32,015 nucleotides of DNA, from positions 1 through 32,015 of IMG/VR virus record IMGVR_UViG_3300023215_001996; one strand, written 5' to 3'. The notes below the pieces were generated by a model. The model ran no database searches and was not told the DNA's origin. It worked only from the letters and a program-made list of their open reading frames with translations. Both the position numbers and the translations under genes were made by a program. Of the stretch, positions 3,465 through 32,015 are shown piece by piece. Numbering within the stretch: position 1 is the first letter of the stretch; each line of letters begins with the position of its first letter. The DNA is from a virus. Taxonomy: Duplodnaviria; Caudoviricetes.

Positions 3465-3666
3465 TACTAGAAGTAAAACAATATCCGGATAACAAAGCGG
3501 TGGTCACGGATCCCGAATGGTTTCCAATCTCCGCAGCAGAGGTGTAGATGCAGATAAGGATCCACTAGGCGAGAACTGTATGGCAAGGATCCTAGCACCA
3601 AGAAGAGTTGGGACATCTGTAAAAAAAGGCCCTTTGGTTGACATTTCTACTGGAGAGGTTAGCTAG
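3461..3666 (+). pseudogene. Small gene apparently broken by a frameshift (or two tiny ORFs)
   Basis: GGAGG + ATG 3461 reads 28 aa to TAG 3547; the -1 frame is open from 3493 to TAG 3666, abutting the methyltransferase start. Confidence 0.35.
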
Positions 3667-4937
3667 TGTGGATACTTCCAAAGCAATTACACACCTCTCC
3701 CTATGTACAGGATATGAAGGCATTGGGCTTGGACTGCGAAGAATTTGGCCTAATATCAGAGAAATCGCTTATGTGGAGATCGAAGCCTTCGCAATCGCAA
3801 ACTTGGTTACGAAGATGGAAGAGGGTTTCTTATATCCAGCACCTATCTACACGGACCTTAAAACCTTCCCATACAAAGCGTTTCGTGGATATATTACTAT
3901 CCTCTCTGCCGGATTCCCATGTCAGCCGTTTAGTGCTGCCGGAAGACGAGACTCAACAAAAGATCCGAGACATTTATACCCATATATTGCCAGAGGAATC
4001 TCTCAATGCGAACCAAATTATGTTATTCTCGAAAATGTCGAAGGAATCATCAGCAGTAAAACCGCAGAAGGAGAATCGGTACTCCAGTATGTCCTCGGAG
4101 ATTTGGAAGATAGAGGTTATTGCCCAGCGTGGGGAGTATTCTCAGCGGTTGAAACAGGTGCACCACATCAGCGAAAAAGAATCTTTATCATGGCCTACCG
4201 CAACACAGGGTGACCCAGAAGGCGGAAGTCAAAAAGATAGAATTGAAATGACAGATAGCGGATTCAAATTAAGAAAAAAGAATAAACCAGATATGACCTA
4301 TGGAGCAAAATTGAGAGATGCGGTGGAATACCATGAAGAAAAGAATTGGGCTACACCAACGACACAGGAGATAGCACATCACGATATGGAGTTGACGGAA
4401 ACAGGTCGTAGGGCGAGCAAAGACGGAACGAGCAGCCACAGCATGAACCTAGAGGATTCAGCGAGGCGATGGGCAACACCAAATACAATGGATTATCTAC
4501 CGCCAAAAGAAGGTGAGGCTCAGGCAAGAATTTTTAGGACACATCGCAAAGGAAGAAAAGCACCATGCAATTTAAGAGAACAAGTAAATCCGAAATCATG
4601 GCCGACACCACAAGTAGGCGAAGAGAAAGCAACGAAACCAGGAGGGACGCAAAATCAGAAAATGCTATCCCATGTAGCTATTGGCCTTCCCGACCAGGAG
4701 AAGAGCAGTACGAGTGGGAAGAGCCAAGAGTCGTGGCCGACAGTTACAGTGTCGGACCAGTACAACCCGATGCCAAGACACGACCACGAAAGAAAAATAC
4801 TGAGGGGGGTGGTTCACAACATAAATCACAGTTCCAAGGAAGCAGTAGCAGTAGGGAAACTCAATCCGAACTGGGTGGAGCAGATGATGGGACTTCCGGT
4901 AGGGTGGACCCAACTGTCAATAGAGTGGATAGATTGA
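3666..4937 (+). CDS. Overlapping-frame methyltransferase subunit: five W(P/A)T modules plus motif IX
   Basis: 423-aa open frame overlapping the catalytic ORF; WPTA/WATP/WATP/WPTP/WPTV at 4191, 4347, 4470, 4599, 4734; LNPNWVEQMMGLPVGWT is motif IX-like. Confidence 0.8.
   Translation: MWILPKQLHTSPYVQDMKALGLDCEEFGLISEKSLMWRSKPSQSQTWLRRWKRVSYIQHLSTRTLKPSHTKRFVDILLSSLPDSHVSRLVLPEDETQQKIRDIYTHILPEESLNANQIMLFSKMSKESSAVKPQKENRYSSMSSEIWKIEVIAQRGEYSQRLKQVHHISEKESLSWPTATQGDPEGGSQKDRIEMTDSGFKLRKKNKPDMTYGAKLRDAVEYHEEKNWATPTTQEIAHHDMELTETGRRASKDGTSSHSMNLEDSARRWATPNTMDYLPPKEGEAQARIFRTHRKGRKAPCNLREQVNPKSWPTPQVGEEKATKPGGTQNQKMLSHVAIGLPDQEKSSTSGKSQESWPTVTVSDQYNPMPRHDHERKILRGVVHNINHSSKEAVAVGKLNPNWVEQMMGLPVGWTQLSIEWID
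3668..4213 (+). CDS. DNA (cytosine-5) methyltransferase, catalytic part (motifs I-VIII)
   Basis: SLCTGYEGIGLG (I), AGFPCQPFSAAG (IV), ILENVEG (VI), GAPHQRKRIF (VIII); stops right after motif VIII. Start is GTG 3668 after GGAGAGG, or TTG 3638. Confidence 0.9.
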   Translation: MDTSKAITHLSLCTGYEGIGLGLRRIWPNIREIAYVEIEAFAIANLVTKMEEGFLYPAPIYTDLKTFPYKAFRGYITILSAGFPCQPFSAAGRRDSTKDPRHLYPYIARGISQCEPNYVILENVEGIISSKTAEGESVLQYVLGDLEDRGYCPAWGVFSAVETGAPHQRKRIFIMAYRNTG

Positions 4938-5038
4938 GGTTATTGGGTAATGGAGTTGTACCGCATACTGCTGAAAGAGCAATAAGAATTTTATTGAACA
5001 AACTACACCAAAAAGATGATGATGCCGGAAAAAGATAA
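4565..5038 (+). CDS. Methyltransferase C-terminal piece carrying motif X
   Basis: RVDRLRLLGNGVVP at 4922-4963; same frame as the catalytic ORF but separated from it by several stops; start uncertain (4565 or 4598). Confidence 0.7.
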   Translation: MQFKRTSKSEIMADTTSRRRESNETRRDAKSENAIPCSYWPSRPGEEQYEWEEPRVVADSYSVGPVQPDAKTRPRKKNTEGGGSQHKSQFQGSSSSRETQSELGGADDGTSGRVDPTVNRVDRLRLLGNGVVPHTAERAIRILLNKLHQKDDDAGKR

Positions 5039-28164: not shown

Positions 28165-28242
28165 TGTTATAGTATGCTTGGCAAGGAGAAGTGGCCTTCT
28201 AGGTACCAAATACGAGGCCGATTTTTAGGCAAATAGGTAAAA

Positions 28243-31200
28243 ATGGCATATCCCAATATATACAGTACAGTTTTTCAATTTGAGAACAGCGATAGTGATC
28301 GTGGCAAGCGGCACAATAACTGGGGTGCACATATATGGACATCTGAATTATCAAATTTGTATGGTGCCACAAAGGGTGAATCATTCGTAGGCCAGGATGG
28401 ATTAACCTATTATACTGCTGCATATCAAGATATTAAAAGTGGGGATGCTGCCAGTAAATATATTGTTGATCAATTGTGGGAACGATCCGGTAAAGATCCA
28501 TATCAATTTGCTTCAACGTATACCGGTCACGCATTGGATCACGAAACCGTTAGGTCTATTGGTGATGATATAACGAGAAGTCTGGGTTCGCAAGTAAGCC
28601 AGGACCAGACACAAGTTAACGGTGCTGCTGTAGCCGATGACGTATATGATGGTGATGAACAATTAGAGTTTGTTAAGCCAGAAGAAGACCAACCACAACA
28701 AGCATCCGACACCCAAGTCCAAAAAGTTATGAATGCAGCTGCCACTGTCCAAAAGAAATTAGACCAACAGCAGGTTATCAAAGATAATTATCAAGTTCTG
28801 GTTGAAACATATCCAGCACTTTACTCTGAAATCAAATCATTGGTAGCAGAAGGTGAGTTAGATCTTCCAACTATAGTTAATATTGTAAGAGAAAAAGCAA
28901 AAGCAAAAAAGGATAAAAAAGCACAAGAGGAATTTGAGCGATTACATCCTCCACCAGTGTTAGACTTTTTTGATAAGGTTGCAGAATTTGGAACTTGGAA
29001 ATGGACGCAAGTCCTTCCATTCTTTGGCAGCGGTGCCGAAGCAATTGAACTTGGCATATTGGTGGTGGCGGCAAATGCTTTAGAAGATGGAACAGCTTCA
29101 GAACGACAGATTAAAATATTAACAGAATATGTTGAATTCTCCAGGGCTGATAAAACGTGGATGTATAATACATTGAATCTAGTTGCTCACTTACCGGCAT
29201 TTGCTGGTGAGATCTGGGCGACTGGAGGAATATATACGGCTGGAAAAAAGGTATCATTAGAAACTGCTAAGGCAGTTTTAAAGAAACTTCTTACTACATC
29301 TGGTCAGAAGACATTACGTCAATATTCACAGAAAAAGGCAGGCGGAATAGCCGTTAAGTCTGCGACAGCCGTGGCCGGTGCTACAGCACAGACTCTTCCA
29401 GCTGGCGTTACTAGGATTACAGCGGAGACAATTGGAAGAACACTGCCTCAAATGCAATTGACACCGGAAGAAGAGTTAGTGATTACTGGTCCGGGTGATT
29501 CAGCCTGGGATGCATTGATCCTTGCAACTAAAGGACAGTGGATTGAAATGGTATCTGAAAGAACTGGTGGTTTATTTAAAGAATTAGGCAAATCAGCCAA
29601 GGAACTAATGGCCAGAAACTTATTAATGAAAAAATGGTTCACAAAAAATCCCACCGCTGCTCCATCGGCATTCAGAGCAGTATTAGATGAAGTTGGTTAT
29701 CATGGCGTAATAAATGAGATCTTGGAAGAACGAGTTTCAGCAATAGCAAGAGCCACACCTGTTATTGGCACTGGTGGGGAACTAGAAGATCCTACCACTT
29801 TAGAATTTTGGAAACAGCTTTCATCTGAAATGGTGGCATTTTCCTTTGTTCCATTGGTCGGCAAAGCATTTGATTATAGAGAAGGAAAGAAGAAAAAAGA
29901 TTCTATGAAAGTTGACACGGAGGGAGTGCCAACCCCAGGAACAGTATCAACAGAAGAAGAAACAAAAGAACGAAGAATATCTAAGGTCAAGGCCCTGGAT
30001 GAGATTAATGCAGCTGAAAAAGCTGGTGAAACCTCTTCTGGAGTTGCAAAATTAGCCAGGACAATACTTAGTCGTGATCCAGACTTTGATTCAAGATCCA
30101 GCATAGCTATTAGTACAGAATTAATAGAATTAACTGATGAATATATCGAAGAAAAATTGGGTCAGACTGCTGAAGAATTTTTTGCTGACGAAGGCATGAC
30201 AGTAGAGGAAGGCGAAGTAGCATATGGCACTGGTTATACTGAGGTGGTGGATACTATTGATGGACAGGTCAAGACGGCTATCCATCTATTTAAAGGCCAT
30301 GATGCCGATACTCTTGTTGAAGAATTCTATCATGATTTTTGGGAACGTATGCCTGAAAAAGATCGAAAGGCTTTTGGCAAATATCATATAGCTTCCGGAG
30401 ATAGCAGATCAGTAGCAGAACATTTCGGTCAGGAAGGAAGAGACTTCTTCTTTAGTGAGAAGATGCATGAAGACGCTGGTGGGATACGAGAACTATTTGT
30501 TAATGCCAGGAATGCGTTAAAGGAACTAATCGCCAGGATCAGGACCATCAGGGGTGCCATGATACCAAAAAGGATCATAGATATATACACTGCTGCCGGT
30601 AAGAGGGAATTGCCAACAGTAAAAGAGCCGGGTCCCGGGAAACCAAAGAAAAAATTTCAAGCCAGGAAGACAATAGAGCCACTTAATAAAAAACAGAAGA
30701 CAGATCTAAAAAAGAGAAAGCTGCTGTTCCAGCTACGGGCCAAACCAAAGAGTAAAGAATTCAAGTCCTGGTTTGGAGATAGTAAGGTGGTGGATGACCA
30801 GGGTAACCCTATGGTGATGTATCATGGGACCAATGAAAGTTTTGATGAGTTTATGCCAATGGCATATGTTTCACCTAGTGCTGATGTTGGGAACTTTTAT
30901 GCTAGGGATCATAGAGGTTTGAGAGAAGAGCCAGGAACTGAAGAAGGAGGTCAAGTTCTTCCAGTGTATGTAAGTATACAAAATCCTTTTGATTTTCATA
31001 GTGATAGAATTGATTTAGGTGAATCAACAAACTTTGAAGAATTTATTTTTGAGGTAAATGCGAAATTAAAAGAAGATGGTAAGAAAGAATTCACTGAAGA
31101 CGAGAAAGAATCTATATGGGATATGGTTACTGTTAATATAGCAGAGATAGACCAAATGGCTGGTAAAGATTTGACATCAGATGCTTATAGTAAAGATGAG

Positions 31201-32015
31201 GATTTTAACACCTATAGTTTTATAGATATGAATTTAGTTCTTCAGGAAATTTTAGAAGATAGGGGATATGATGGAATCAAGTCCAGTGAGTTTATCCTGG
31301 AAGAAGAAAACCCTGAAGTTTATATAGCCTTTAACCCTAACCAGATCAAAGGCGAGTTCAATGCCAAGCCTACCATGAGTCCGAAGATTATGTTCCAGGT
31401 CAGGAAGAAGACAGCAGATCTAAAGCTAAAGGAAAAGCCTAGATCTAAAGAGTTTAAATCCTGGTTTGGAGATAGTAAGGTTGTTGACGATAAGGGGGAA
31501 CCCCTGGTTGTTTATCATGGGACAAATAATGAATTTGACGTATTTAATATTGGACTTAGTGGTATATCGTCAGGTGTTGATACAGGAGCATTCTGGTTTA
31601 CTGATGCAGTAGGAGCAACTCAAGAATTTGGTGAAGAAATCACAATGCCTGTTTACCTCCAGATTAAAAACCCATTAATTATTGATAAAAGAAACAGGGC
31701 ATTTAAAAACACGAATGAGCCAGTAGAAATAATTAGAAAAGCACAGAAAGAAGGGCATGATGGTGTTATAATAAAAGATGTTCGTGATGGTATGTTTTTG
31801 AGTAATGTATATGCAACTTTTGAACCCACCCAGATCAAAGGCGAGTTCAATGCCAAGCCTACCAAGGGCCCGAAGATTATGTTCCAGGCCAGGAAGGGAA
31901 GGTTACAACTCCAGCTTGAAAAGGAAGAAGCCAGGATTGATAAGAAGTTTGGCGTTGAAAAGTGGACGGATGAGTTTGTTTTAGATCCACCCCAAAGATT
32001 AGTTGATGTACAACA
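28243..32015 (+). CDS. Giant polyvalent virion/ejection protein (>1257 aa, 3' truncated): lysozyme-like N-terminus, degenerate zincin-like domain, two ADP-ribosyltransferase-like domains
   Basis: Hand translation from ATG 28243 has no stop to the window end; RGKRHNNWG (28300), TLVEEFYH (30310), two FKSWFGDSKVVD..G.P.V.YHGT...G.DG...F.P.QIK domains. Confidence 0.85.
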   Translation, partial: MAYPNIYSTVFQFENSDSDRGKRHNNWGAHIWTSELSNLYGATKGESFVGQDGLTYYTAAYQDIKSGDAASKYIVDQLWERSGKDPYQFASTYTGHALDHETVRSIGDDITRSLGSQVSQDQTQVNGAAVADDVYDGDEQLEFVKPEEDQPQQASDTQVQKVMNAAATVQKKLDQQQVIKDNYQVLVETYPALYSEIKSLVAEGELDLPTIVNIVREKAKAKKDKKAQEEFERLHPPPVLDFFDKVAEFGTWKWTQVLPFFGSGAEAIELGILVVAANALEDGTASERQIKILTEYVEFSRADKTWMYNTLNLVAHLPAFAGEIWATGGIYTAGKKVSLETAKAVLKKLLTTSGQKTLRQYSQKKAGGIAVKSATAVAGATAQTLPAGVTRITAETIGRTLPQMQLTPEEELVITGPGDSAWDALILATKGQWIEMVSERTGGLFKELGKSAKELMARNLLMKKWFTKNPTAAPSAFRAVLDEVGYHGVINEILEERVSAIARATPVIGTGGELEDPTTLEFWKQLSSEMVAFSFVPLVGKAFDYREGKKKKDSMKVDTEGVPTPGTVSTEEETKERRISKVKALDEINAAEKAGETSSGVAKLARTILSRDPDFDSRSSIAISTELIELTDEYIEEKLGQTAEEFFADEGMTVEEGEVAYGTGYTEVVDTIDGQVKTAIHLFKGHDADTLVEEFYHDFWERMPEKDRKAFGKYHIASGDSRSVAEHFGQEGRDFFFSEKMHEDAGGIRELFVNARNALKELIARIRTIRGAMIPKRIIDIYTAAGKRELPTVKEPGPGKPKKKFQARKTIEPLNKKQKTDLKKRKLLFQLRAKPKSKEFKSWFGDSKVVDDQGNPMVMYHGTNESFDEFMPMAYVSPSADVGNFYARDHRGLREEPGTEEGGQVLPVYVSIQNPFDFHSDRIDLGESTNFEEFIFEVNAKLKEDGKKEFTEDEKESIWDMVTVNIAEIDQMAGKDLTSDAYSKDEDFNTYSFIDMNLVLQEILEDRGYDGIKSSEFILEEENPEVYIAFNPNQIKGEFNAKPTMSPKIMFQVRKKTADLKLKEKPRSKEFKSWFGDSKVVDDKGEPLVVYHGTNNEFDVFNIGLSGISSGVDTGAFWFTDAVGATQEFGEEITMPVYLQIKNPLIIDKRNRAFKNTNEPVEIIRKAQKEGHDGVIIKDVRDGMFLSNVYATFEPTQIKGEFNAKPTKGPKIMFQARKGRLQLQLEKEEARIDKKFGVEKWTDEFVLDPPQRLVDVQ

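Follow-up and report, generated by a model that had tools for sequence, protein, structure and literature searches.

Whether a DNA cytosine methyltransferase that is laid out as three pieces in two overlapping reading frames is a decayed gene, the source of a frameshifted product or a set of separate chains is the question raised by a locus in a 32,015-nucleotide stretch of phage DNA, referred to below as the window. The 32-kb window is an entire contig; it has genes for integrase, terminase, portal and head proteins and comes from a tailed phage, and the locus lies among replication and recombination genes, with an exonuclease gene upstream and DnaD-like and NinG-like genes downstream. The sequencing runs that contain the locus are marine; no RNA run was listed among them, and X13, which may be an RNA run, covers two pieces of it.

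Layout of the locus and identity of its pieces

Frame A (position modulo 3 equal to 2) carries motif I at 3695, motif IV (GFPCQ) at 3911, motif VI (ENV) at 4031 and motif VIII at 4169, and its catalytic piece terminates at the TGA codon at 4211-4213. Frame B is open from 3666 to 4934, with its stop at 4935-4937, and spans the entire catalytic piece; motif IX lies in it at 4860-4907, while motif X is back in frame A at 4922-4963. The motif names are those that we take to apply on the basis of consensus sequences. An initial annotation of the window had distributed the motifs between the frames in the same way, and our reading of the open reading frames agrees with it. It had also described about eight frame-A stops of all three types: the three types are there, but the stops are nine, from 4211 to 4535 (four TGA, four TAG and one TAA). 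These do cut off the motif X piece, as was claimed; what had been overlooked is that frame A then reopens, being open from 4538 to 5035 with a 157-codon ORF (ATG 4565 to 5038), and that a second conserved frame-A block lies within it at 4682-4729. The proposed start of the catalytic piece, TTG 3638, has to be revised, since the likely start is GTG 3668. The features, all on the plus strand, are as follows.

3652 to 3670, plus strand: shared Shine-Dalgarno (SD) sequence (3652-3659) and overlapping candidate starts of beta (GTG 3666, frame B) and alphaN (GTG 3668, frame A)
3668 to 4213, plus strand: alphaN, catalytic piece with motifs I-VIII, 181 aa, frame A
3666 to 4937, plus strand: beta, 423 aa, frame B, with a leader free of stops where it overlaps alphaN, five W-x-T-P modules and motif IX
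4211 to 4537, plus strand: nine-stop stretch of frame A, coding in frame B only
4549 to 4567, plus strand: candidate start of gamma (ATG 4565) within the beta gene, with its candidate SD sequence AAGGAAG (-5.6 kcal/mol by computation)
4565 to 5038, plus strand: gamma, predicted 157 aa, frame A, containing motif X and the WPSRP..EWEEPR block
4682 to 4729, plus strand: conserved frame-A block WPSRPGEEQYEWEEPR, upstream of motif IX
4860 to 4907, plus strand: motif IX, frame B
4922 to 4963, plus strand: motif X, frame A, followed by a terminal helix
3662 to 5014, plus strand: extent of the whole cassette, as delimited by contigs without it

The openness of frame B over the catalytic piece is more than chance: synonymous resampling led to a mean of 11.1 frame-B stops, with at least one stop in every one of 20000 resamples. 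In runs X1, X2 and X4, contigs are identical to the window over 4132-4505 or 4132-4532 (three studies, one of which is possibly the window's source), and contigs of X3 and X5 agree with it over most of 4132-4532. The three-piece layout is real, and is neither an assembly error nor the product of recent decay.

The methyltransferase identity of the pieces was supported by several matches. AlphaN matched PF00145 (E 3.5e-31), phrog_363 (E 1.3e-40) and M.HhaI (E 1.2e-10); beta matched phrog_1008 'DNA methyltransferase' (E 8.9e-15); and the gamma region, scanned over 4538-5035, matched both phrog_1008 (E 2.2e-6) and phrog_363 (E 2.4e-5). Phrog_363 thus covers alphaN and gamma, and phrog_1008 covers beta and the motif X stretch, both being annotation families ('DNA methyltransferase') that carry no stated architecture. 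Motifs IV (PC), VI (ENV) and VIII (QxRxR) of C5-cytosine methyltransferases are present together with the SAM motifs I and X, and the catalytic residues PC, ENV and R-x-R are invariant across 56 aligned sequences. Motif I is canonically FxGxG; in the window it has a variant form, SLCTGYEG, and similar forms were seen in relatives with a continuous frame A and in cultured phages. The structural model of one continuous relative, L148 (pLDDT 74.7), matched M.HhaI in Foldseek (E 1.4e-12), which indicates an M.HhaI-like fold, and its motif X segment was modelled with pLDDT 89-93. Prediction of a complex of alphaN, beta (4185-4934) and gamma scored 0.84, as compared to 0.67 with beta replaced, a difference that we counted neither way.

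Contigs that join 3661 directly to 5015 were found in runs X1, X2 and X4, with matching loose ends in X3, X5, X6 and X7; for this reason the cassette is regarded as accessory. The same samples commonly contain the cassette-free allele. A small frame-C ORF (3517-3666) has the cassette in its 3' end, and the former tail of this ORF appears to be represented by gamma's final residues (5015-5038). No restriction endonuclease was recognised beside the locus among 30 ORFs scanned, and a 25-base search with the gene downstream of the cassette gave no viral contigs.

Related loci and the origin of the break

A survey of homologues for a conserved break in frame A had been proposed in the initial annotation, and the break is indeed conserved. 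From 275 sequences, 212 with motif IV and sufficient upstream DNA yielded 150 distinct loci: 105 have a continuous frame A, 30 (window included) have a broken one and form one clade, two have motif X in frame +1, and 13 gave no motif X match. Eleven of the last are probably cut off (three of them already with an early stop), and two are continuous on reading. Since the loci were found by queries from the broken group, these proportions should not be taken to reflect natural frequencies. L029, which is one of the two loci with motif X in frame +1, carries frame-changing indels.

The broken loci are mutually at least 74% identical (median 81%). Motifs I, IV, VI, VIII, IX and X are readable in 30/30 of them, and all three pieces co-occur in each of the 30 complete loci. 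In a tree of 140 distinct catalytic pieces (quick search, midpoint root) the broken rows occupy one side of a branch with SH-aLRT 99; because this group sits among continuous forms, we infer that the break is derived, and a single origin was seen. When six genes neighbouring the locus in the window were compared by tblastn with the other 29 broken loci, several of these being short in flanking DNA, none gave a match.

From a second set of 155 loci we removed 51 duplicates and 8 unusable rows, which left 96 new loci. Of these, 90 are continuous, two have motif X on beta and four gave no match; a broken frame A was found in none of the 96. In the genome collection, the relatives comprised L279, at 55% and continuous, and 15 that are distant. 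In cultured phages, the three-piece layout was not found among 5 of 1523 matching phage records; motif IX lies in frame +1 in all five of these records, and their annotation gives one frame or a shortened second gene.

Some relatives are worth describing individually. In L066, L376, L327 and L277 (Gordonia phage Upyo), alpha has an early end and beta carries motif X, fused to it in frame +1. The cultured phages C75C1 (L081), Xenia (L275), phi1026b (L276) and Yong-M2-251 (L278) have a long unannotated +1 frame with modules and motif IX. In L005, the ORF that follows motif X looks by eye like a second DNA methyltransferase, of the amino type (VVTSPPYW).

Overlapping starts, frame-specific selection and modules

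A start codon is present upstream of motif I in both frames in 147/147 loci. The two starts are 2 nt apart in 125 of them (ATG+GTG in 107, GTG+GTG in 18), and in 29/29 loci of the broken clade; one ribosome-binding site likely serves both. The claim that frame B stays open over all of the catalytic ORF extends to the relatives: none of 149 loci has a frame-B stop over the catalytic core, where frame C averages 7.3. In the second set, frame B is open over the core in 84 of 96 loci and has a stop in 12. A conserved frame-B stop 76 nt past motif IV was noted in L279, L296, L297, L300, L301, L304-L307, L309, L311 and L312; in L279 an ATG lies two codons past this stop, and the beta leader is thus split as well. 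Selection on the amino acids of the beta leader was not detected (pN/pS 0.8-1.1, to be compared with 0.71 for the motif X block, most of which lies beyond the beta stop). We read the N-terminal half of beta as a leader that may stay open to let ribosomes get to the modules and motif IX.

Over the rest of the gene, pN/pS (pairwise counts, uncorrected, among related sequences of the broken clade) changes with the frame. Motifs I-VIII gave 0.27-0.34 in frame A; the WPARP..EWEEPR block (WPSRP in the window) gave 0.24 in frame A vs. 1.05 in frame B; motif IX gave 0.10 in frame B vs. 3.46 in frame A; and motif X gave 0.17 in frame A. The selected frame along the gene is A, A, B, A. In L066, L376 and L327, whose motif X is on beta, the block follows directly after motif VIII on alpha, and since the move of motif X has left it in that position, it behaves like a component of the catalytic side.

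In the broken stretch of the 30 loci, 416 frame-A stops occur in 3451 codons between the first and the last stop, whereas from the block to the end of beta there are none in 1806 codons (30/30 loci; 5.4 expected per locus). Where frame B has a Trp or Cys codon, frame A reads NTG, and candidate starts are therefore common and can be compared. With SD energies computed against the E. coli anti-SD sequence, which may differ from that of the phage host, ATG with an SD of -5 kcal/mol or better was found in 18 of 44 NTG contexts after the last stop, as compared to 3 of the 104 that precede it and 12 of the 305 present in continuous relatives; these contexts share ancestry, and the Fisher p values are 1e-8 and 6e-11, respectively. 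ATG alone was found in 21/44, 24/104 and 51/305 of the same contexts. An SD-backed start is present in 26 of the 30 broken loci, in 10 distinct sequence contexts, 0-15 codons past the last stop (median 5), and predicts a gamma of 76-164 aa; four loci (L001, L093, L094 and L110) lack a start whose SD reaches -5, and five depend on TTG. In the window the SD of gamma is moderate and 11 nt from the ATG, and in L096 the same context has a stronger one (-7.8). Selection on the frame-A block, a stop-free frame A and an SD with a start after the last stop support the option, raised in the initial annotation, of an enzyme of three chains.

The beta of the window contains five W-x-T-P modules, at 4191, 4347, 4470, 4599 and 4734. 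Frame A is closed over three of the five, which means that those three can be read in beta only. The number of modules per beta is 2-5 in the broken clade and 1-6 in continuous relatives, and the variable region has a median length of 588 nt in the former vs. 453 nt in the latter, among related loci and ignoring kinship. We found 27 different module strings in the 29 broken loci in which motif IX was located, and 434 modules in 97 clusters across 127 loci, all pointing to tandem, exchangeable modules between motifs VIII and IX. Contigs of the same samples swap the stretches 4201-4681 and 4736-4859. From their motif likeness, the modules may be akin to target-recognition domains (TRDs). Beta was modelled with low confidence (pLDDT 60.4), and the model gave no match at E 0.001, nor any solved recognition domain.

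Proposed assembly and alternative explanations

It is probable, judging from the sequence comparisons, that a phage C5-cytosine methyltransferase is encoded here as three conserved pieces, which would be separate proteins that assemble into one enzyme. A single ribosome-binding site with two starts 2 nt apart would give alphaN in frame A and beta in frame B, the latter consisting of a leader needing only to stay stop-free, the shuffled recognition-like modules and motif IX. Gamma would come from a third start, ATG 4565, within beta, and the WPSRP block and motif X of gamma would complete the SAM-binding fold; alphaN and gamma may form the SAM-binding domain in the way motif X packs in the L148 model, and DNA recognition would be left to beta. 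The ancestor was presumably a two-frame, two-chain enzyme of the M.EcoHK31I kind, from which the layout would have arisen once, when the need for frame-A filler separating motif VIII from the WPSRP block was removed by an internal start. The enzyme likely shields phage DNA from host restriction. A more specific proposal, to which we give an even chance, is that an active C5-methyltransferase is made of three polypeptides from 1.37 kb, with the third start in the module array, and that the split frees the modules so that several sequences are marked. The start of gamma would occur in at least 10 sequence contexts as modules shuffle, and a split alpha would release the modules from double coding, so that one enzyme could mark several sequences.

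Frameshifting offers two other ways to read the locus, which we evaluated by scanning for slippery heptamers (X XXY YYZ; other signal types by eye). Ribosomes on beta might shift by -1 before the WPSRP block is reached and so produce a fusion of beta and gamma, instead of or besides gamma, still giving three chains. Such heptamers occur between the last stop and the block in 9 of the 30 broken loci, four loci lack a good start, and L001 and L094 have AGGAGG about 12 nt before an A-run; on the other hand, 21 of the 30, window included, have no heptamer there, L093 is without AGGAGG, and what is enriched is an SD plus ATG at initiation spacing, with ATG alone enriched too. We consider this fusion unlikely. 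The initial annotation had suggested instead a single chain that would require two shifts, +1 near 4190 and -1 near 4915. This would restore the canonical order I-VIII, TRD, IX, X in frames that overlap at both sites, and a motif X fused to beta in one frame does exist in L066, L376, L327 and Gordonia phage Upyo. However, the WPSRP block lies upstream of motif IX and would thus be absent from a chain that returns to frame A after it, although the block is selected in that frame (pN/pS 0.24), and the upstream frame-B start, its openness and the SD-ATG pairs would be left unexplained. The shift near 4190 is not needed, because frame B has its own start beside that of frame A in 147/147 loci; moreover, the last codons and the stop of the frame-A catalytic piece vary among broken loci. 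As to the shift near 4915, no heptamer occurs past motif IX in any of the 30 loci, and no conserved shift site was found at the proposed junctions. A doubly shifted single chain is very unlikely.

The remaining explanations concern the product or its message rather than the reading frame. Three proteins may be made and selected while their complex does not methylate cytosine at C5 (for example, it may bind or shield DNA), or gamma and beta may complement another methyltransferase. The atypical motif I and the beta model that matched no solved recognition domain speak for this, which we nevertheless hold to be improbable, given the invariant PC, ENV and R-x-R in 56 sequences, the strong selection on motif X and the presence of the three pieces together in 30/30 complete broken loci. 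Removal or skipping of the filler at the RNA level, by splicing or by ribosome bypass from motif VIII to the WPSRP block, would yield a continuous alpha and agrees with the two frame-A pieces being in register; they are in register, though, because frame B is continuous, and the stop-rich stretch has ends that vary in place and sequence and is protein-coding in frame B, so this route is extremely unlikely. The same low probability is given to a decayed gene or an assembly error. The frame-changing indels of L029 favour it, as does the absence of the cassette from part of the phage population, from which it follows that the cassette is dispensable; against it are the identical stops in other studies and a 30-locus clade with readable motifs and purifying selection (pN/pS 0.10-0.34), which bears out the earlier argument from intact motifs. 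Recoding of stop codons was also considered and ruled out, because all three stop types occur.

Relation to known enzymes and genomic observations

Natural two-chain C5 enzymes and complementing fragments have been described, and the comparison with M.EcoHK31I and M.AquI drawn in the initial annotation agrees with the available text of both papers (PMC3404938, PMC2836561). In M.EcoHK31I (E. coli, YGGCCR), according to the same text, motif IX is on an alternative-frame chain, while motifs I-VIII, motif X and also the TRD are on alpha (PMC2836561, PMC3404938). Compared by description, the window is similar in that the motif IX chain is in another frame of the same DNA, and the alpha/beta layout of M.EcoHK31I was seen in 105 of the 150 relatives. 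Unlike M.EcoHK31I, the window has no single alpha chain with motifs I-VIII and X that encloses beta: nine stops interrupt alpha, a separate candidate start serves motif X, the start of beta adjoins that of alpha, with beta running over the entire catalytic gene, and the recognition-like modules are on beta. No record named M.EcoHK31I was found among the best 40 of 591 plasmid matches.

In M.AquI (CYCGRG), the catalytic chain ends after motif VIII, with motifs IX and X on one small chain, as given in the available text of PMC3404938. The catalytic chain of the window likewise stops after motif VIII, with the remainder in trans, and an M.AquI-like partition in overlapping frames is found in L066, L376, L327 and Gordonia phage Upyo. 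In contrast to M.AquI, motifs IX and X of the window are on two chains in different frames, beta stopping at 4937 before motif X is complete. For M.SssI, the portion of PMC3404938 available states that splits in the distal variable region complemented poorly, and this counts against the reading as three chains. Temperate phages of Bacillus have single-chain multispecific C5-methyltransferases with tested TRDs in an array that serves to withstand several restriction systems (PMC12707154, available in part). Short variable modules between motifs VIII and IX, in an order shuffled across loci, are common to these enzymes and our loci; unlike the Bacillus phage single polypeptides, the window has its modules on an overprinted chain, and their putative TRD role is suggested by motif likeness, with no matching fold.

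No three-chain C5-methyltransferase was found in the literature searched, which was mostly literature open without subscription, and the three-piece layout is not described in the available parts of PMC6070908, PMC2884959, PMC9957025, PMC11855218, PMC5944983 and PMC8919816. A marine phage group with a methyltransferase in three pieces and two overlapping frames is likely to be one step beyond the known two-chain enzymes. If so, the SAM site (motifs I and X) of a natural C5-methyltransferase would here be put together from separate chains, extending two chains to three, and a single family would hold the continuous two-frame form, the form with motif X on beta and the three-piece form as resolutions of an overprinted gene. 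Annotation would label such loci as truncated or as pseudogenes. The locus could also serve as a compact test of dual initiation at overlapping start codons and as a natural scaffold for split, targetable methyltransferases, a use for which M.EcoHK31I has been chosen, according to the available text of PMC2836561.

Other features of the contig were recorded as well. A gene at 554-1171 codes for a phage peptide deformylase with a C-terminal SEC-C motif, and the last 3.8 kb (28200-32015) are without a long ORF on either strand. The whole contig is devoid of CGCG (0 vs. 14 expected), GCGC (0 vs. 23), CGWCG (0 vs. 9) and CGSCG (0 vs. 10), while GGCC and CCGG are not avoided. In marine prokaryote genomes CGCG is a frequent methylated motif, as stated in the available part of PMC8919816. 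CGCG and GCGC are also missing from five other broken loci of one subgroup.
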